A stretch of DNA of 64,000 bases, from positions 1-64,000 of the forward strand of contig CP142731.1 of NCBI GenBank assembly GCA_036630325.1. The letters run 5' to 3'. The notes beneath the pieces were generated by a model. The model was not told where the DNA came from and searched no databases. It saw nothing but the letters and a program-made list of their open reading frames with translations. Both the position numbers and the translations under genes were made by a program. Shown here one piece after another: positions 1-64,000 of this stretch. The stretch is from Vairimorpha necatrix (taxonomy: Eukaryota). Each line of letters begins with the position of its first letter. Positions within the stretch are counted from its first letter, which is position 1.

Positions 1-2605
1 ACCTAACCTACCTAACCTACCTACCTACCTAACCTACCTACCTACCTACCTAACCTACCTACCTACCTAACCTACCTACCTACCTACCTACCTAACCTAC
101 CTAACCTACCTAACCTAACCTACCTAACCTACCTACCTAACCTACCTACCTACCTAACCTACCTAACCTACCTACCTAACCTACCTAACCTACCTAACCT
201 ACCTACCTAACCTACCTAACCTAACCTACCTACCTAACCTACCTACCACCTACCTACCTACCTACCTAACCTACCTAACCTACCTACCTAACCTACCTAA
301 CCTACCTACCTACCTAACCTACCTACCTACCTACCTAACCTACCTAACCTACCTACCTACCTAACCTACCTACCTACCTACCTAACCTAACCTACCTACC
401 TACCTACCTACCTAACCTAACCTACCTACCTAACCTAACCTACCTACCTACCTAACCTACCTACCTAACCTACCTACCTACCTAACCTACCTACCTACCT
501 ACCTACCTACCTACCTAACCTACCTAACCTAACCTACCTAACCTACCTAACCTACCTACCTAACCTACCTACCTACCTAACCTACCTACCTAACCTACCT
601 ACCTAACCTACCTAACCTACCTACCTAACCTACCTACCTACCTAACCTACCTAACCTACCTAACCTACCTAACCTACCTAACCTACCTACCTAACCTACC
701 TACCTAACCTAACCTACCTACCTAACCTACCTAACCTAACCTAACCTAACCTACCTAACCTACCTACCTACCTAACCTACCTACCTAACCTACCTAACCT
801 ACCTAACCTACCTACCTACCTAACCTACCTAACCTACCTAACCTACCTAACCTACCTAACCTACCTAACCTACCTACCTAACCTAACCTACCTAACCTAC
901 CTACCTAACCTAACCTACCTACCTAACCTACCTACCTAACCTACCTAACCTACCTAACCTAACCTACCTACCTAACCTACCTACCTACCTACCTAACCTA
1001 CCTACCTAACCTACCTAACCTACCTACCTAACCTACCTAACCTACCTAACCTACCTAACCTACCTACCTACCTACCTACCTAACCTACCTAACCTAACCT
1101 ACCTACCTACCTAACCTACCTAACCTAACCTACCTACCTAACCTACCTAACCTACCTACCTAACCTACCTACCTAACCTACCTAACCTACCTACCTAACC
1201 TACCTAACCTACCTAACCTACCTAACCTAACCTAACCTACCTACCTACCTACCTACCTACCTAACCTACCTACCTACCTACCTACCTACCTAACCTACCT
1301 AACCTACCTACCTACCTAACCTACCTAACCTACCTAACCTACCTACCTAACCTAACCTACCTACCTAACCTACCTACCTACCTAACCTACCTAACCTAAC
1401 CTACCTAACCTACCTACCTACCTAACCTACCTACCTACCTAACCTACCTAACCTACCTACCTAACCTACCTAACCTAACCTACCTACCTAACCTACCTAC
1501 CTAACCTACCTAACCTACCTAACCTAACCTAACCTAACCTACCTACCTACCTAACCTACCTAACCTACCTACCTAACCTACCTACCTACCTAACCTACCT
1601 AACCTAACCTAACCTACTACCTACTACCTAACACCACCTACCTAACCTACCTACCTACCTAACCTAACCTACCTACCTACCTACCTAACCTACCTACCTA
1701 ACCTACTAACCTACCTACCTACCTACCTACCTAACCTACCTACCTAACCTAACCTACCTACCTACTACTACCTAACCTACCTACCTAACCTACCTAACCT
1801 ACCTAACCTACCTACCTACCTAACCTACCTACCTAACCTACCTACCTACCTACCTACCTAACCTAAAACCTACCTACCTACCTACCTAACCTACCTAACT
1901 AACCTACCTAACCTACTACCTAACCTACTAACCTACCTAACCTACCTAACCTACTACCTAACCTAAACCTACTACCTAAACCTACCTACCTACTACCTAA
2001 CTACTAAACCTACCTACTACTACCTAACCTACCTACCTACCTAACCTAACCTACCTACCTAACCTACTAAACCTACTAACCTACCTAACCTACCTACCTA
2101 ACCTACCTAACCTACCTACCTACCTAACCTACCTAACCTACCTAACCTACTACCTACCTACCCTACCTAACCTAACCTAACCTAACCTAACCTAACCTAC
2201 CTAACCTAACCTAAACCTAACCTAACCTACCTAACCTAACTAACCTAACCTACCTACCTAACCTACCTAACCTAACCTAACCTACCTAACCTACCTACCT
2301 AACCTACCTACCTACCTAACCTACCTAACCTACCTAACCTAACCTACCTAAACCTACCTACCTAACCTAACCTAAACACCTACCTAACCTACCTAACCTA
2401 CCTAACTATACCTAACCTACCTAACCTAACCTACCTACCTAACCTACCTAACCTACCTAACCTACTACCTAACCTAACCTACCTACCTACCTACCTACCT
2501 AACCTACCTACCTAACCTACCTACCTAACCTACCTACCTACCCTAACCTACTAACCTACTACCTACCTACCTACCCTAACCTACCTTAACCTACCTTAAC
2601 CTAAC
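1..2605. repeat. Telomeric array, composite (ACCT)n/(AACCT)n on + = (TAGG)n/(TTAGG)n on -
   Basis: The window starts inside a continuous C-rich array of ACCT and AACCT units in irregular order. Variant units (ACT, AAACCT, ACCCT, ACCTT) accumulate from ~1615 inward, and the array ends at ~2605. Confidence 0.97.
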
Positions 2606-2764
2606 ACGTAAGCTTTTAGACCTCAAACCTTTATGAATCTTTTGTTTAAAAAATTTATCACTTTATCAATATGTAACTAAAATAAATAAAAATTGAAAAT
2701 TTTAAGATAAATTTATCTAACTATCTTTATAATTCAATTATTTTTTTTCAGATTAATGATTATA

Positions 2765-2803
2765 TGTTATACTTTTATTTATTAGGAAAGTTCAACCTTA
2801 ACA
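2765..2803 (-). repeat. 3' mini-LTR (39 bp) of the Gypsy element
   Basis: Minus strand TGTTAAGGTTGAACTTTCCTAATAAATAAAAGTATAACA, directly after the polypurine tract. About 31/39 identical to 5873-5910. Confidence 0.8.
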
Positions 2804-5800
2804 TCCCCCCCAAACGGGTAGTCTTACGTTAAAAGCTTCTAATTAATCATTTTTATAATCTTCTAGGTCATAATGTCGTTTTTTAATGTATCTTCCGCTA
2901 TCAGTCCTTACAATAAAAGTATCATTCTCATACTTTCCCATCATTTTACCAACACTTGTAAATCTTCCTTTTGTACTTTTCATCTATTTACCCAAGTTTT
3001 TTATCTTGCGATTCTCACAGCCTGATCTACTTCAAATTTTTCTCTATGCTTTTGTTTAAACTTACTTGCATACACATTCTTTTTATTGTTTTCAATTAAG
3101 ACTTCTTTTCCTTGTTCTTTCCATGCTTCCATTGGTGTACATTTAATCGCTGTGTGTAGAGTGTTATTATAGGTTCTTGCAGCTTGTTCTAGTTTTTCCT
3201 CTGGGTTTCCTTCTTTTTTAATGATCATCGATTCCCTCATTGTTCAAATACATCGTTCTATTCTTCAATTACTCCTATGAGCTTCTAAACCTACTTTCCA
3301 TTGCATAATTTCGTTTTCTATACACCAAGTTACAAAATTCTTACTAAAAATTCCTTATGTTTTCCGTAATATATTCATCTAGGTATCTATCTCAAATATC
3401 CATTTTATAAAGTTTTAGACTAATTTCACTATCATTATTTTCTATCTTTGCGTCACATATTCTTGTTCTAAGTAGTCCATCCCTAATAGCACGTATCTTT
3501 CTATTTGCCAAATATCCAATACGTTAGAAAGTTTTTTAAATTTCTTAAATATTGTTACTTAATTGCTACCTCCCATCGTTTTTCTATTATTAATGCTACA
3601 TACTTCACAATTTTTTAGTGTTGTGGTTATCTGGTACTTCATACCGGACCAGTACCATCTTTGTTTAATCTTATAATGTGTTTCCTTAACTCCTCGATGA
3701 TTTAATTCCTCATGAACTCTACGAATTTCTGTACTCACTTATTTCTTCCTGTTGTATTTATGAATTACTCCTGTTGAGAACTTCCAAAAGTTTTTTCCTC
3801 TTCTAACCATGCGCTTTATTTCTTTCCTTTTCATCTATTTTTAGCCCGTTTCTACTTTCGCTGCTTTCTTTCACTTCGTTATTTTAAAATCTCTACTAAG
3901 AGCATCCACATACGTCATCCATTCGCCTTTTACATATTCAATAGTAGAATCATACTCTTGTATATATTATATCTATCTATTAATTATGTAATTATTGAAA
4001 AACGGTTTGTTTCTAATCATGGCCAGTCCTTTATGATTTGTCATTTATTGAAATTTACTTCCACCCAAATCTGACTCGATTTTCTTTATTCCAAATAAGG
4101 CTGCCAACATCTCTTTTTCACTAATCGTATACTTTTTATCTGTTGGTGTTATCATTTTTGATGCTCATTGTATCTGAATCCACCTTCCTTCTTTGTCTTC
4201 TTGCAATAGTATGGCTCCAATTCCCGTATCGTATGCATCTGTTCTTACTCTACACATTTTTTTTCTATCTACTATTTTTAAAATTTTAATTATCTTTAAA
4301 CCCTCTTTGATATCATAAAAGCTCTTTCCATATCTTCGGACCATTCCCATTATACATCTTTTTTTAGTGCTTCTGTAAGAAACGCTGACCGATAAGCATA
4401 ATGGGGAATAAAATTTCTTGATCAGCCTGCCCGTCCCTCAAATTCTCTAAGCTCATTTATGTTGTTAGGCCTTCTGTATTCTTTTGTCACTCGGAATTTA
4501 TTTTCCTTTGGTTTAATTTCTTCTCCGTAAATTGTTACTACAATAATTTTACTTCTCCTTTATATTGTATCTTTTTTAGTTTCTTTTAAACCATATTCTT
4601 AGAATTTTCGAAATATTTGTTTTAATAAATTATCGTGTATATTACTATCACTTACATGAATAATAATATCATCCATGTATACCTCATAACTTATCTAAAA
4701 CCCCGTTCATCACTCTTTGCATAATATATGGAGTATTTTTAAATCCCATTACCATGCTATTTCATCTGTAAACTCTAACATTTATCTCAAAAGTTCTCTT
4801 CTGTTTTTGAGCTTTTTCAATTTCTATATGATAGAATCCTTACTTTAGGTCTATAACCATAAATACTTTAGAACCTTGCGTTGCCCTAATAATGTCTCTA
4901 ATCAATGGCAATTCATACGGATCTTTTTAAACCAGTTCGTTTAAAGCCATCAAATCGAATACCGATCTCACTTCACTATTTGGTTTTTCTATGGGCTTTA
5001 TTAGGCTTCTCCATTCGCTCTTTGTCCTTCTGATAATACCTCTACTTTCTAATAAATTAATATACTTTTCTAACTTTTCTCGGAGTTTATAAGGAATATT
5101 TTGTTCCTTTTTAACTACTTTTACTCAATGTTTTGTTTTGATAGAACATTTTCTCCCGGTAAAGTATTTTATTTTCCCTTTGTCTTTTCCTAATACCTCA
5201 GGAAATTTTCCTTCCAATTCTTCATATTTATTAATATTTTTTCTTCTTTTATCTTGATTTGTATTTTTTATATAAAAACTGTTTCTTGAGTTCTTTCTTC
5301 CTACCTCCACTGGTAGTCTCAATTTAAAATCATTTCCTTTTAATATTTTCACTTTACTATAATCACGAATGCCAAAATATTTTTCACTTTTAATTTCATT
5401 ATTCTCTTCCTGCCTTCCTTTACGCTCCATACAACCTCTAGCTATATGTATATTTCTTCCACATATAAAACAATGTTTTCCTTCTCGTCTTTGATATTGA
5501 AAGTTTCTTCCTGGCACTGCTACAGTCCTAGTCAGATCTCTTTTTTTTTCTCTTTTTAATTTTTCTTTCATACCTCTACCTTTTCTTTTAGTTCTCTACA
5601 CCTTATTTTTTCCTTGTTCTTATTCTCTTTCTCTTCACAACTAATTTATCAATTTCATCAATAATATCATTCCAATTTATCATACTAATTAAATTTTTAT
5701 CAATAATAAAATTTTGAAGTTCAGTAATTACTTGTTTCGCCATTTCGTTGTCAAATCTTGTACATCTTTTTGCATTATGATGATTGTCTCACTCTTCGAG

Positions 5801-5872
5801 CTTCTTTTAGTAATTTATTGTTCTCTTAAACATGGCTCTCACTTGTTAACCTTTCGTATTTTGTGTTCGCCA

Positions 5873-5910
5873 TGTTATACATTTATCTAATAAGAGGTTC
5901 GACTTTAACA
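5873..5910 (-). repeat. 5' mini-LTR (38 bp) of the Gypsy element
   Basis: Minus strand TGTTAAAGTCGAACCTCTTATTAGATAAATGTATAACA, followed directly by TGGCGAACAC. Confidence 0.8.
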
Positions 5911-24790: not shown

Positions 24791-27054
24791 TGTAGCATGA
24801 TCATTTGGATGTTATTTCGACATAACATAATTTTATGTTTATGACAATTCTTATTCAAGCTTATTTTTTTTTAGAAAATCTCATTAAATTATGCAAAAAA
24901 TTATACAATTTTTTAATATAATTACATGATTTTATAAGATCTTATTTATTTGAACTATGTCAATTTCTTTATTCATTTTTACATGCCCTCTTTAAGAATT
25001 TTTCTTAATACTTTTTGTAGCCAATTAAATCTGCCAATTTGTGAGAATATGATTGATCAGTATTTGATTGGCTACGATAATATCTACATTTTTGTATAAA
25101 AATTATAATTTTTAGATAATTTCAATGCTAAATTCATACATACGTACTTATGAGATTTTGCTATTATTCTTAATACAAATTGTGTTTATTCTCAATACAT
25201 TTATATAATCGCTCTCTCGTATTAAATAAATAAAATATAAAATCTTCATGATATTTAATTTCGTTTTATATTATATTATATTAAAGTGTTGTATTTTAAT
25301 ACAGTATTGTTCTCCAATGGGGTATTGGTTGTTTTTTATCCACAATTATATTCGTTCTAATGTACCTCGATGTATTCCAATAATAAGAATTCATCATTAA
25401 ATACAAAAAAATTTTGTTATTGATTTATACACATATTATATTCTGATTTTTAATTCAAAATCTATTTATTCTATGTGTTGATACTGGCAATAATTATATA
25501 ATTGAATGTTTTAATTACACAAAAATACTTATATATTATTTGTTACCATATAGAAAGTTCTATTATTTCAATACAATTATTTTTACTGCACTAATATTTA
25601 TGTATATTTTTCTTGATTTTTAAGTTTTTTATTTTGTACTTTCATATATATATATATATATATATATATGCAGATAGATACCCTTTAAAAAAAATTAAAT
25701 CATGTATATAATAAAGGTTTTAATTAGAATAAAAAAAAACTTCACAATCTACTTACATATATACATATGTTATTTTTACTAGTTTTTATGAGATGTCAAA
25801 ATCTTCTTTTTTCGTGTTCATTATCTCTCTCATGTACAAATGTACATAGATACTTTCTATTAGCCAAAAAAATTAGAAATATTGCTGATACTTAAAGACC
25901 TGTAAAATATATTTAGATGTAATTGTAATTAAAATATAGATTGTTTCTGAGAGTTTTTAAAATATTTAATCATTATTTAAAAATTTTTACCAATTAGTAT
26001 ACATTTATTAATTTTATTCTTATGTTAGAATGTTAAATCGTAAAACGCCCACGGTTACACTAGAAACTTTTAGAATCATTCTGTTTTAAAATCTTCATAA
26101 TAAAGACATACTTTGATTTACTTAAAGAAAAGATAAATCATTCAAACATATAAGTACGCATATATATATATACACAGATTCCTAGTTATCACATAGATCG
26201 CACAATTATATGCATTTTCAGATGTTCTTATTTTTTTTTTTTATATTTTTCAAGATTTGTCTTCTTATATATATATATATGCAAGAAAGAGATGGAAAAT
26301 GGCAAATTTTATAAATGCTTTAAAAACAAATAAAGACACACAAATTATACTTATATATCAATAATATATATATATATATATATAAATATATATATATAGA
26401 TATGTAGTCTTAGATGTTCTAAATTTTACTACATTGTTATTTCCTTCTTATATGTTTACAAAGTTATAGTTACTTATCTATAAAAAACATTCGAAATTAT
26501 TTTATTCTTAAAAATATCATCAAGAAAACCAATACTTCTAACTTAACATACATATACTATAAATGTTAATTTTTTTTGTTTAGAAGTAAAGTTTTTTTTC
26601 TTCTTCTTTTAAGTTCATTATCCTTCTTATATATACATATACATCTTTACAATTGATTTTTTAAAAGAGGATAAGTTCTGTTTTTCTTAGTACCTCAATG
26701 ATTTGAATATATTTAACAAATATTTCGATACAATATGTTTCTGTTTGTTGTTAAAATACGTTATGTTAGGGCTTTTTTATTATTTTAGCATTTTAGTGTA
26801 TATAGTATATTATTGTTTTATAATTACAATTTAAAAGGTTGAATTTCTACATTTACACTATTAAAATTTATGGTTAATTCTTTGACACAACTTCTTCATA
26901 CATCGGTCATCTAAAAACTTAAAGAGCCTAACAAACCATAATAGATGATCTATATATACAAAAATATAAAGTAATAAAATAACTTGCATTGCTTTGTTTT
27001 GCAGACTTTGATTGTTTCTTAAGTTAAGAATTGGTCTTTTTCTACATGAAAAAT

Positions 27055-27078
27055 ACCTAACCTACCTACATACCTAAC
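27055..27078. repeat. Short interstitial telomere-like sequence
   Basis: ACCTAACCTACCTACATACCTAAC contains both unit types, in the same orientation as the terminal array. Confidence 0.55.
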
Positions 27079-29232
27079 AAAAGCTAAATTAGCCGTATCT
27101 TTTCCTTAATGCATTCTCGTTTGGGTTTTAAAAAAATTCAAAATAAATTTGTGCTGAAATACGTACTTATATTATAAACAATTTGGTATTTAAAGTATCG
27201 TCTAAAATTCGATCAAAACTATAATTTTTAACATTTCTATAGGTAAGATTTGGTGTTTAATGCATAAAAATAAAAAAAATACCTTTCATCATATGATTGT
27301 ATTTATTAATAATGTTATTATATCATTCATTGCACTATAATTTTATTTTAGAAGTGTCTATCGGAGAGTTTTAATCTAATTCTTTTATAAAAAATATTTG
27401 AATTATAACAAAATAATGTATATTTTAAGTATATATGCAATAGACCAAGCTAAATTTTGTACTAAGTCATCTATACAGAACAGAATTATAAAAGAATCTT
27501 AAAAAGTTCTACATTACTATCCTTCGATAAAAAAACTTTAATAAGTATTAGTTCGGTAAGGCAACACGCAAATAAAATAGAATTTTTTGGGATTCAATTG
27601 TAAGATTTGTTAGGAACTCCCAGTATACGATTTTAAGGGATTCAGATATAACATGTGTAAAATATTAAATCTATTAATATATAAATGTAAATTATATCGA
27701 CATATCATATTAATTTATTATATTTTTTGAGTTTTATAGTCGTAACGTATTGTATTATTATATTTTTAAATAAATGTATAGTTTTATTTTTCCGTTAAAC
27801 ACAATGATTTTTAATACATAATTTTTGTTAATTTCTATAACCTGTATCTATCAAATCAATCGTCATTTTGATAATTCAAATTCTTAACAAATAAATTTCA
27901 TTATAATAGATAGCAAAATTTGAGATTTTTAATATTTTGATTCTTTGTATATGCACGCAATGAAAAAAGAAGGTAAGATGTATATAAATGTAAATTGTAT
28001 TGTCTCTTTGTTTTTTTTAGAAATTTTGTGGATAACAAAAATAATTTGTAAAATGAATTTTATAGTATTAATATTGCATTTTATTTTAAATTTTGCTGGA
28101 TACATTAAATTATCTAATAAAAAGTAGATATCTTAAATATTTTTCTATAGCAATCATTTACTTATCTAAACATTTAACCAACTCTCAAAACATTACCTAC
28201 GTAGGATCTTTTTTTGTTCTTGAATATCTTCTTAACAAATATTAACAATTTTAATAAAATGTATATTACACATACTAAAGATAAATTTAATGCACTTCCT
28301 TGTTATCTAGATTACTCTATCTTTTAATCAAATATTGTATTTATCTATCTTTAAATTAATCTTGAATTCATATATCTTTAATACAAGGTTTATGGTCACT
28401 ATACAATATTCATCAATAATTTAGTCCATTACAAATTTTCAATAAACATCTATATATAAATATCTAATATTTTATTAAAAGATTGCTGCTTTTAGTTCTG
28501 TATTTTTTAACCAAATATTTTCGTAAAAAATACCACTACATGTATGGCTTAAGCCTATTGTATTTGCGATTTTGGATTTTTTTGATTCATATTTGGCTCT
28601 AGAATTTGCTGAACCTAAATCAGGGGGTCGTAAAGCCGTGAATACAGTTATATAATTGATAGGATTTTGGAAAGCCTAGGATGTGTCAGTCCTCATAGTA
28701 CAAAAAAATGTTTCGGTCATTAAAGAGGGAGATAAATGTAGAGATTAGAATTTTAATTGAACTTTAGTATAAGGTTTGTTAAATATGATCGAATTGTTAC
28801 AAAAATACAATCCATTACATCTAATTAAATTTGTTAAATCTTTAAACTTACATTTCTAATATTTTTCTTGACATCATAATTAAGAAAATAAATTTCTTTT
28901 CTGAGTAACAATTTATTTTTGTTTTGTGTTGATATTAAATTTATAAAAAATGAAATGTATTTTTTATTATAGATTTTCTTGTTTTATATATAATTTATAG
29001 AATTATAATGGGTTTATATAATATTTTATAAATTTGAATCAAATAAATTTAATATAATATAAAAGAGGGGGTTTGTAATTTACATTTAGTAGCTAATTCA
29101 TTTTTTGGATAAAAAATATGCACAAGAAGGCGAATAAAGATTAATAGTGATAATAATTCAGAAATAGTTGTGTGAATGTGATATTTATAGAAAATTATTT
29201 AAACAAAAAAAATAACATAATTTAAGGCTTAT

Positions 29233-58118: not shown

Positions 58119-60350
58119 TTATTTTTTATCATAATTTTCCAAAATCTTGGTTAAATTTCTGTGAAATTTCACTCCTATATTGTAATCATTCAGAATTTCA
58201 GATAATTCATTTTCACACAGCAACATTCGAATTTTTTTAATTTTTTTTTCCGCAAATTCTTTAAAAATTTTTTTGTTACTAATTTCATTGTCCAAAAGAG
58301 ATTCAAGAGATATTAAAAAATCATTTTTTATAGTATTTCTTATATTTAAATTAATTAACTTGTTTAAATCTCGAGAGAAAATTTCAAGTTCGTCTTTTTT
58401 ACATTCATAAAGCAATTCTGCATTAATTCCTGCCGATACATTGGATACATCTTCTGTCAAACATTTATTACTAAAGATCTTTTCAATTACATTTACTCCG
58501 TTTTGACGTAATCGTTTTTCAAACATTTTAGTTTTATTTTTATCATATAAATAATTAATTTTTTTATTTAAAGCATCATGCTTAATTTTACATAGTGCCG
58601 TAGATAATCTTTTTTCATAGAAACTATAAACAATATTTTTCAATTCTTTTCTATAACGATATAGTGCTTCGTTAATACGTTGGTTTCTTGTGTTTTCTGA
58701 TAATTTTTTTCTTATTATTTCATTATTATTTTCAACTGTAATATTATTTAAGCAAAAAAAATCAAAAACTCTATCTTTTTCAATATAAAAATGTACATAT
58801 TCAAGTATACACAAATTTTGCTCATATCCTGTATATAATGATGTTATCGAAAAAATTTGCTTCCATATATTGTTCATGTATGCCTGAATATCTTTAAGAT
58901 GAAATTTTACAGCGACGTGGAATATTTCAATTAAATCGATATTTTTTATGACATTATATTGATTATCACATGGTATAAACCCTGCTTTTTTCTTGATAAG
59001 AGCGGCGATATTGCTCAAAATTAATAATATTGGTTTATCACTAACATCATTTTCATTTATAAAACGTTCAACTTCGTATAATAAACAGATTTTTATCAGG
59101 AAAGTACTCGCTAAAAAACTACAATTGCATAAATTTGTTATTATTTTTTCTATAAGCAGATTTTTCGATGTTTCATCAAATTCTTTGTTTCTTAAAATTT
59201 TACTTAGATTAAATTCTTTATACAAATTATCAGACAACAATATATGAAGTAAAATCAAATAAATTGCACTTCCTCTTTTATTTAAGATTTTTTTTAAGAA
59301 GAATTCTGCACGACCACCTGTTTCTAATAATCTAAAAAGCAATTCCACTTCGTTATGACATTCACCTAAAGTCTTTATATAATAGGTTTTTCTAAAAAAC
59401 TCTTGAAATTCCAAAGATGTCGAATTTGTAAAAATGGCTTCATGTTGTAAAGAATATATATATTCCTTGTAATTTTGTGTAAAACGTATTTCGTCATTAT
59501 CCATTTTAATTTTGAATATATTGTGATAAAATTCAATTTTATTTAACGTACAAACCGAAAAATAAGATATATTACGCTTAACGATTTTATCAACATATAT
59601 AAATTTATACAATTCTTTAAGGTGAATACATATTTGGTGGTCAATTTCATTAATATGTTCTCTTATCATAATTGTATGTGGAATAAGATTTTCAGAACCA
59701 AGTTCTTTAATATTTAATTCAAAGAAATAATGAACCTTGTCTATATTTATACAAATACATATGTAGCGGGAATTGCTCCTTTTAATATAAGAAATTGGAG
59801 ATTGTGGAAAACATAATCTACCCTGGACAATGCTAGTCTTAAATTTTAAATTTGTAAATACTTTGTACCAAAGAACATCATTTTCCATGATGTATTCATA
59901 AAATAGTTCATCTTTGAGTCTTAGTTTTTTTTGTTTAATATTTTCGTTTTTTATATGTTCAATTAAGTTCTTAAAAATAGGACGAACCTGGAAAAATAAC
60001 GGATTATAAATCAAAACGTTATAATCAGCCAAATAATTTCTATGTTCCATTAAAATAATGTGTTTAAATTCTTTAACTACAGTTAAAATAGATTTGTTAG
60101 TGCAATTAATCTTTACATTTTTAGTTTCTTGTCTTTTTTGAAACCCTTTGATCTCTACTATAATATCTACATTAATATTATTTTGTCTGATATCAAAATC
60201 CATTAAAATTCTCAAATATCGTTTATCATAATCAATTGTAGTATAATCACCGCTTTCTATTTTTTTTATTAGTACCAAATTTATCTGATTAGAAACATAT
60301 TGACCCGATTTTATAAATAAAATAGTAAAAGCAAATTTAACGACATCCAT
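58119..60350 (-). CDS. Hypothetical 743-aa protein, predicted secreted, paralogue of 45252-47426
   Basis: Long ORF starting MDVVKFAFTILFIKS, with TTACCCCAT before the ATG and AATAAA overlapping the stop. Shared motifs IK.IE.G, CTLN.I, IL...GSAI, I.LIE.F, L.TG and NNE.IRK. Confidence 0.93.
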   Translation of the reverse strand: MDVVKFAFTILFIKSGQYVSNQINLVLIKKIESGDYTTIDYDKRYLRILMDFDIRQNNINVDIIVEIKGFQKRQETKNVKINCTNKSILTVVKEFKHIILMEHRNYLADYNVLIYNPLFFQVRPIFKNLIEHIKNENIKQKKLRLKDELFYEYIMENDVLWYKVFTNLKFKTSIVQGRLCFPQSPISYIKRSNSRYICICINIDKVHYFFELNIKELGSENLIPHTIMIREHINEIDHQICIHLKELYKFIYVDKIVKRNISYFSVCTLNKIEFYHNIFKIKMDNDEIRFTQNYKEYIYSLQHEAIFTNSTSLEFQEFFRKTYYIKTLGECHNEVELLFRLLETGGRAEFFLKKILNKRGSAIYLILLHILLSDNLYKEFNLSKILRNKEFDETSKNLLIEKIITNLCNCSFLASTFLIKICLLYEVERFINENDVSDKPILLILSNIAALIKKKAGFIPCDNQYNVIKNIDLIEIFHVAVKFHLKDIQAYMNNIWKQIFSITSLYTGYEQNLCILEYVHFYIEKDRVFDFFCLNNITVENNNEIIRKKLSENTRNQRINEALYRYRKELKNIVYSFYEKRLSTALCKIKHDALNKKINYLYDKNKTKMFEKRLRQNGVNVIEKIFSNKCLTEDVSNVSAGINAELLYECKKDELEIFSRDLNKLINLNIRNTIKNDFLISLESLLDNEISNKKIFKEFAEKKIKKIRMLLCENELSEILNDYNIGVKFHRNLTKILENYDKK

Positions 60351-62461: not shown

Positions 62462-63500
62462 TCATATATATAAAAGAATTTTATTTAATTTTTTACCCCT
62501 CTTTTTTGTGGGTTTGAAATTACTAAACGATACATTTTGATGCTTTTACGTTATTAAAATATTAAAAATAAATTCAATGTTTTAATTTGACTATTCCAAG
62601 TGTGTATACTATGTGTTAATACATTTTGATTTAGTTTGTTATTTTTGGAAAGCATGGTCCCAAAATATCGTCAGAATCGTTGTTTAGAATTTATTTGACC
62701 CTTCCGCGAAAAATTGTAAAAACATTTAACCAATAATGATTTTAAAGATAAAGGTCAAAAGTTGAGCTTAGAAGTTTATAAAAGCATTTCAATATGACTC
62801 AAAAGTGTTTTTAACTTAACTTAACTCCTTATATGTTACTAAAAAGTATTTTTAAAAACGATGTCTTCATCCTATCAAATTCAATCATCCCGAAATAGAA
62901 ACTCACCAAAATTTACCGAGGGGCGACATATTAAAAAACAAAACATTCAAAACCCGTTTTCAAAACGGGAAAGCATACGCTAGTCATATTATAAAAGAAT
63001 TTTATTTAATTTTTAACCCTTCTTTTTTGTGGTTTTGAAATTTCTAAACGGTACATTTTGAGCCTTTTACGTTAATATAATATCAAATTTAATTTTAACG
63101 TTTTAATTTGATAATTGTAAGTGCGTATATTATATATTAATGCATTTTAATTCATATTATTATTTTTGTAAAACTCAGTTCTAAAATATCGTCAGAATCG
63201 TTTTTTAGAATTTATTTAACCCTTCTAGAAAAATTTTAAAAATAATTGCCAAATAAAGATTTTGAATATAAGTGTCAAAAATTGAGCTTAGAAGTCCCCA
63301 AAATTATTTCAATATGACTCATAAGTGTTTTTAAAAACTTTACTCCTTATATGTTACTTAAAAGTATTTTTAAAAAGATGTCTTCATCCTGTCAAATTCA
63401 ATCATCCCAAAATGGAAACTTAAAAAAATTAAAAGGGGAAATACATATTATAAAACTAAACATTTCGATGCCGTTTTCAAAACGGGAAAGCATACGCTAG
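62462..63500 (+). mobile_element. Head-to-tail dimer of a ~520-bp non-autonomous Helitron
   Basis: Units at 62462-62983 and 62984-63500. Each starts TC and ends with the hairpin CCGTTTTCAAAACGG ~11 nt before CTAG. Outer flanks are A and T, with no TSD. Confidence 0.88.
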
Positions 63501-64000
63501 TTATTTTTATAAAGCAATTTAATTATACATACCAAATTAAACAACATGTTTTAGAATAGTCTATAAAAAAATTTGCAGCATAAGGCATACATTAAAATTG
63601 TATTGCTAAAAAATTTAATAAATATTAGTATAAAAATCATTTATAAACAGAAGTTTCCGAAAAAATATATATCGACTTATAAATGACAACATATTGTTAT
63701 TCTGAAACTATATTTCCTGGAAACATTAAAGGCGCCTATAATAATAAGATTTTTTGAATCAAAAATTTTGAGACTAAAGTGCGTAAAAATTATATAATGT
63801 ATAAAAACAATTTATCTATAAATAATGAAAAAAACTTTAAAGATTTTATTTTGATATAGTATCTAATAAAGTATTCATTTTTGTAAAACCTTTTATATAA
63901 TATTTCCTTCTTCTATTAATAACAAAGAATTTTTTTCGTAATTGGTCGAAACATTTGACAAAATCTTCATCGATATTATCTATAGATTGAAGTTGGCTAT

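Follow-up and report, generated by a model that had tools for sequence, protein, structure and literature searches.

The chromosome ends of Vairimorpha necatrix carry a composite telomere, an aperiodic mixture of TAGG and TTAGG units in which the choice of each unit depends on the one before it. This order points, with a probability that we put at about 0.6, to one RNA template which reads TAGG and then TTAGG and is re-used in several registers by the single TERT of the genome. A composite TAGG/TTAGG telomere has already been published for Nosema muscidifuracis and was apparently overlooked in V. necatrix; new here are the rule of unit order and the template prediction. The sequence analysed (the window) is the stretch of 64,000 nucleotides at the left end of contig C6, starting from contig base 1, of a genome of 15.0 Mb in 12 contigs.

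Parsed on the minus strand, bases 1-2604 resolve into 344 TAGG, 214 TTAGG and 39 other units, and the unit parse of this G-rich strand places the inner boundary of the array at 2604-2606. The plus strand of 1-2604 is composed of C, A and T alone, with zero G over 1-2605. The initial annotation had described a terminal array of two irregularly alternating units, with four-base runs up to about seven, five-base runs mostly of one to four and no higher-order period. Description and coordinates are correct: TAGG runs range from 1 to 7, and in the clean stretch no internal repeat exceeds 17 units, where Markov simulations give 17.6. The length of the TTAGG runs was slightly overstated, since 141 of the 172 are single and the maximum of 6 is reached once. 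The order of units in the window is not random, as TTAGG follows TAGG in 161 of 323 cases and follows TTAGG in 42 of 201 (Fisher p=2e-11). Throughout the genome a 28-base word of the array is found 208 times in forward and 207 times in reverse orientation, and the control word, read backwards, 0 times. The features of the window are listed in Table 1.

Table 1. Coordinates of the telomeric and subtelomeric features of the window
Feature	Position	Strand	Basis or remark
Terminal composite telomere array	1-2604	-	G-rich strand toward base 1; unit counts, no G on plus strand
Distal zone, almost free of variants	1-1616	-	single variant, TGG at 246-248
Proximal variant-rich zone (TAG, TTAG, TTTAGG, TG, others)	1617-2606	-	38 of the 39 variant units
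Example of the context rule: TTAG, TAGG, TTAGG	1697-1709	-	TTAG 1706-1709, TAGG 1702-1705, TTAGG 1697-1701
Second case of the context rule	TTAG at 1928-1931	-	unit parse
Telomere-subtelomere junction motif common to ends	2605-2625	-	pattern at 18 of 21 arrays
Shared subtelomeric block, decayed LTR-retroelement-like, facing the telomere	2606-5900	-	other ends carry it at about 84-88% identity
Short decayed internal TAGG/TTAGG tract (fossil telomere)	27037-27081	-	polarity same as array

For the comparison across chromosome ends, 8 kb were taken from each of the 24 contig ends and parsed. The same mixture is present at 21 of them, always with the G-rich strand outward and in arrays of 1.1-3.7 kb as parsed, and no array was found in the end sequence fetched for C3 right, C8 left and C11 right. 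The 21 ends together hold 6457 TAGG and 4263 TTAGG units (1.5:1), so that TAGG makes up 57% of the 11391 units, and 1904 of the 2362 TTAGG runs are single. A minor unit, TAGGG (153/11391), is mostly proximal, as are nearly all of the 59 occurrences of TTTAGG. A profile search for the telomerase RNA-binding domain PF12009 gave one match in the genome. TERT is an intact ORF of 912 amino acids (Telomerase_RBD E=2.5e-17 and RVT_1 E=3.5e-16, both above cut-off), identical to the protein labelled TERT of V. necatrix by NCBI. The presence of the array at 21 of 24 ends with correct polarity, together with an intact TERT, supports the reading of the window array as a true telomere of the telomerase type, as the initial annotation had it, and we infer that telomerase synthesises it. 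Three low-complexity insertions (N/I-rich, M/N/D repeats and S/T/N-rich) set the TERT of V. necatrix (L001:775-3513) apart from a 55%-identical relative (P0002), the sole relative found, which lacks them.

Arrays of this kind might instead be copied by recombination or rolling circles, or represent an internal satellite. Some exchange has indeed occurred, since C2 right and C9 left have 254 identical units in common and the two ends of C5 have 32, and short internal tracts are present. All other pairs of ends share at most 30 units, the longest run common to two ends has a median of 18 units, and the longest internal repeats agree with simulation, without excess, at 19 of 21 ends (the exceptions are C8 right with p=0.01 and C10 left with p=0.03). 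The median shared run and the agreement with simulation indicate that most ends were built independently, while the 254 identical units speak for reproducible reading and for one exchange between ends. Against a satellite stand the position of the arrays at contig ends, their outward G-rich strand and the intact TERT, and we consider copying without telomerase very improbable. The 254 units shared by C2 right and C9 left include the G-rich degenerate proximal part, and reflect either a recent exchange or an assembly join.

Genome-wide, variant units make up 13-15% within 750 bp of the junction and 0.2% at a distance of 1.5-2.0 kb, a gradient that would be expected of an array renewed distally and ageing proximally; the distal zone of the window would be a recent product of telomerase. 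The units lying 1250-2000 bases from the junction are 1883 TAGG, 1285 TTAGG and 13 others (total 3181), which makes the two main units 99.6% of the distal array. At C4 right, C5 left, C11 left and C7 left, unlike at most ends, variant-rich patches recur distally and are possibly copies of proximal zones. The two units differ by a single homopolymer base and TTTAGG does occur in the genome, which could speak for stuttering on T over a TAGG template, a stuttering enzyme having been one of the initial suggestions, or for base-calling loss of T from pure TTAGG. Homopolymer errors would strike GG as well and stuttering would yield TTT, and the distal counts, with 0 TTTAGG and 6 TAG, speak for neither; graded lengths of T, TT and TTT are absent from this zone. 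Independent errors would also leave no Markov memory, and they do not agree with 254 units identical at two ends or with a 51-bp internal tract identical on C3 and C7. For the assembly this reading is already refuted, and it is the one to which we give the least weight.

The Markov models called for by the initial annotation were fitted to 55 variant-free stretches with 7263 decisions. By BIC a first-order chain is best (9026; order 0 has 9764 and order 2 has 9031), and AIC slightly favours order 3 (8997 against 9012). The probability of TTAGG is 0.521 after TAGG and 0.208 after TTAGG, the latter being the smaller of the two at 21 of 21 ends, and the lag-1 autocorrelation of units is -0.315. 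The array has no hidden period; it is aperiodic with one unit of memory.

Variant units extend this rule further upstream. In counts cleared of two duplicates, C9 left and the initial 170 bases at C5 right, the next unit starts with TT in 34/35 cases after TTAG-TAGG (0.97; 16 ends), in 13/15 after TTAGG-TGG (0.87), in 49/75 after TAG-TAGG (0.65), in 24/48 after TAGG-TGG, at a frequency of 0.52 after a normal TAGG, in 30/101 after TAGGG-TAGG (0.30), at 0.22 after TTAGG and at 0.13-0.14 directly after TAG or TAGGG. The choice of unit thus varies with upstream sequence, from 0.97 down to 0.13. The two strongest contexts, TTAG-TAGG and TTAGG-TGG, are both 8-base repeats inside the string TAGG-TTAGG-T, and the simplest reading is re-entry 8 bases back, with TAGG copied into TTAG in one pass. 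If TTAG were a TTAGG that had later simply lost a G, the expected frequency would be 0.52, not the 34/35 observed. TAGG comes next after isolated TAG, TTAG, TAGGG or TG in 24/24 cases, and after isolated TGG in 4/7; TGG variants are mostly preceded by TAGG (67 against 18 cases). The informative variants sit mostly in the old proximal zone and may instead be later mutations, and the effect of an upstream TTAG could be exerted by protein-DNA contacts, not by RNA pairing.

The model which we favour would work as follows. The template RNA would contain the core 5'-CUAACCUA(C)-3', possibly with a few extra bases on either side, and after each round the DNA end would re-anneal in two or three registers. 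A poorly pairing end would be placed at the template start and gain TAGG, an end pairing well through GTAGGT would be carried into TTAGG about half the time, and an end in TTAGG, which would pair one base less well, would mostly gain TAGG. Two registers on one template had been among the initial suggestions, and the unit statistics favour this one.

A toy pairing model with two fitted parameters was applied to 10,507 decisions, the templates being chosen after the data had been seen. The best-scoring templates all include TAGGTTAG. Log-likelihoods are -6534 for the three-register template TA+GTAGGTTAGGT and -6532 for TTA+GTAGGTTAGGT, against -6572 for the previous-unit rule, -6660 for a template of five-then-four order and -6670 for the bare core. 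A 13-nt template of 4-4-5 form, proposed in the initial annotation, contains the likely core and scores -6607, worse than the previous-unit rule. In a two-register scan the 4-5 and 4-5-4 forms tie, and TGG variants are poorly explained by the toy model and by the one-template reading. Since the templates are post hoc, the two forms tie and TGG fits poorly, only the order four-then-five deserves some trust; a single template with this order and several registers is what we infer from the data.

Two template RNAs, paralogs or the alleles of a polyploid, might each encode one unit and share one TERT. This situation has been demonstrated in Mimulus lewisii, where two TR paralogs cause a mixed telomere of interspersed 6- and 7-mers (PMC12169523), and V. 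necatrix is described as tetraploid (PMC10759460), so that the searched 15-Mb genome may display one allele per gene. Processive use of two RNAs should presumably cluster like units, against which stand the depletion of TTAGG after TTAGG at every one of the 21 ends and the negative autocorrelation, and the TTAG-TAGG-TT rule requires TAGG and TTAG to be copied in a single pass. This alternative, also raised at the outset, is disfavoured and we hold it to be quite unlikely. The units of M. lewisii are interspersed and one base apart, as here; its account, as far as the accessible text goes, is without statistics of unit order, whereas in V. necatrix TTAGG units avoid each other.

Somewhat less unlikely, though still improbable, is a single ancestral template of pure TTAGG on which one of the two A's is often left uncopied, by a bulge or a mispaired re-entry, so that TAGG is produced. 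No change of template would be needed, a pure-template gene would be invisible to our pattern searches, which demanded both unit types, and TTAGG is reported for Encephalitozoon (PMC10158259) and for N. ceranae; the low-complexity insertions of TERT might, as a speculation, alter fidelity. The toy model is unable to score this explanation. Against it, the supposed error would account for 60% of units while all other changes together amount to 13/3181, and skipping would be commoner (0.79) after TTAGG, the very unit with which a pure template pairs best.

The composite telomere of N. muscidifuracis mentioned in the initial annotation is the subject of a real report (PMC11592040), which in its accessible text describes the form as unreported elsewhere among microsporidia and does not settle how it is maintained. 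As here, both units are interspersed at contig ends, a minor TAGGG is present and the subtelomeres are conserved; the arrays measure 0.6-4 kb, against 1.1-3.7 kb here, and the TAGG:TTAGG ratio is 4.3:1 (sum of its Table S4), against 1.5:1 here. As far as the same text goes, that account is without unit-order analysis, template or mechanism. The telomere of V. necatrix has been published, in the text available, as a five-base repeat only, TTAGG/TAACC (PMC10759460, PMC12449221); TTAGG is common to both descriptions, whereas in our parse the four-base unit is the majority. A four-base unit, which the initial annotation called exceptionally short, is less exceptional than stated, as TTAG telomeres are reported for two other microsporidia, Microsporidia sp. 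MB and Glugoides intestinalis (PMC13174016, PMC12449221). Those have likewise a 4-nt unit, but with a G lost and as a simple repeat, whereas here a T is lost and the unit is mixed with a five-base one.

Mixed repeats made on one template have precedents in yeasts. The TG1-3 repeats of Saccharomyces cerevisiae arise from registers combined with abortive synthesis. For the 28/25-nt motifs of Tetrapisispora, dual annealing registers on one template have been proposed (PMC8211666). These dual-register yeasts share with the model proposed here one template, more than one register and mixed repeat lengths; they differ in that the distal array of V. necatrix consists almost wholly of two units, of 4 and 5 nt, and that its template is predicted only. 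In a search by title and abstract, with subscription papers outside its coverage, neither a composite V. necatrix telomere nor a microsporidian telomerase RNA was found.

A telomere type known from one species is thus present in a second lineage described as pure TTAGG, and other TTAGG calls in the clade may therefore hide mixtures. With more than 10,000 units, the two-unit array records individual steps of telomerase with unusual clarity. If the one-template model is confirmed, a telomere motif can shorten gradually through the choice of register on one RNA, and there would be a handle on the telomerase RNA of a highly reduced eukaryote. A wider proposal, to which we give rather less than even odds, is that the Vairimorpha/Nosema template is very short and has lost one base in its first repeat, so as to read TAGG and then TTAGG, and that the enzyme switches between two states with odds depending on the last 8-9 bases of the DNA end; the telomere itself would then predict the template. 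In that case the template RNA would be 5'-UACCUAACCUACUA-3' or part of it, which would lead to a microsporidian telomerase RNA, and in N. muscidifuracis the odds would be shifted on an identical template, halfway along a change from a five-base to a four-base telomere without gene duplication.

Of the two components which the initial annotation proposed to identify, TERT was found; genome pattern searches and 51 inspected neighbourhoods gave no convincing locus for the template RNA. The genome was searched with 10-mer, 9-mer and wobble patterns requiring both unit types, and 51 site neighbourhoods (9+16+14+12), a subset of the listed sites, were screened for ORFs and repeats. The patterns carried end filters, so that the site lists are partial and the bare 8-9-mer CUAACCUA lies outside the enumeration. 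Control counts are of the same order as the internal matches, which places the candidates at chance level, and the predicted longer form, CTAACCTACT followed by two purines, occurs in the genome inside telomeres only. This outcome keeps alive both A-skipping on a pure template and the pair of template RNAs.

Each candidate site either lacks support or falls in an ORF, a SINE relic or decayed repeats. C6:471000 has an integrase remnant (rve E=2e-8) next to it, C7:952458 is situated inside a frame of 575 codons, C9:178422 belongs to an old repeat family, and C6:390037 and C12:25746 are repeats. C3:1000348, at first promising, belongs to the old copies of a SINE headed by a tRNA; in the young copies the site reads CCTATCCTAC. 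This SINE-like family (C3:1000049-1000769, L032/L087; L088-L116) is headed by tRNA-Met, poly(A)-tailed and about 780 bp long; its 29 fetched copies are 95-100% alike, it provides 41 matches among 184 candidates, and old decayed copies are present too. The C1:968350 candidate is a unique sequence flanked by repeats; it measures about 125 nt, contains a GC hairpin, and has a folding z-score of -0.3 to -0.5, no Rfam match and a flank that fits the variant data poorly. Contigs from the read runs X1 and X2 do not cover its core, which counts neither for nor against it. The closest match to the predicted template, of 13 nt, is C8:724216, antisense within a single-copy frame of 987 codons; by an estimate from base composition, chance would give about 0.45 matches of this kind. 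Its single-copy host gene (L034:38-3001) encodes a large protein that combines a repetitive stalk rich in K/E/S/T with a hydrophobic segment at the C-terminus; the protein has no Pfam match and looks like a surface protein.

The core of the junction motif is also found at two more ends, C2 right and C9 left, and the junction of C9 right differs. In the subtelomeric block a decayed RNase H domain (RT_RNaseH_2, E=1.2e-8) lies at 4168-4437, and putative gag-like (5128-5595) and integrase-like (3004-3243) pieces were read from the sequence, with no match in Pfam. On the minus strand at 2800-2812, about 200 bases before the telomere junction, a G run followed by TG resembles a polypurine tract and the beginning of an LTR; the window yielded no further LTR copy.

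The internal tract is the only one of its kind beyond base 2700 of the window in a density scan. At other ends, related tracts 19-51 bp long are found 14-50 kb further in, most of them behind the same junction motif, and since they consist of mixed units the mixture probably predates those insertions. In the window (2606-27081) and at other ends (L036-L044) subtelomeric blocks recur inward, each behind a telomere relic and junction motif, and resemble the tandem Y' elements of yeast. In metagenome contigs a 31-base composite word matched one unrelated internal tract only. It is a tract of about 200 bp of TAGG/TTAGG (L072:81-290) between CCGGCCGGG motifs, in a contig of 1233 bp with terminal redundancy, and is not telomeric.

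Rfam gave 0 matches over the window, and Pfam 0 matches on the four window ORFs tested. Three long minus-strand ORFs (45252-47426, 49430-50341 and 58119-60350) have hydrophobic N-termini and no Pfam match, and they likely represent families of secreted proteins. A tandem repeat of about 520 bp occupies 62462-63524, and the region directly upstream of TERT on C3 contains similar copies.
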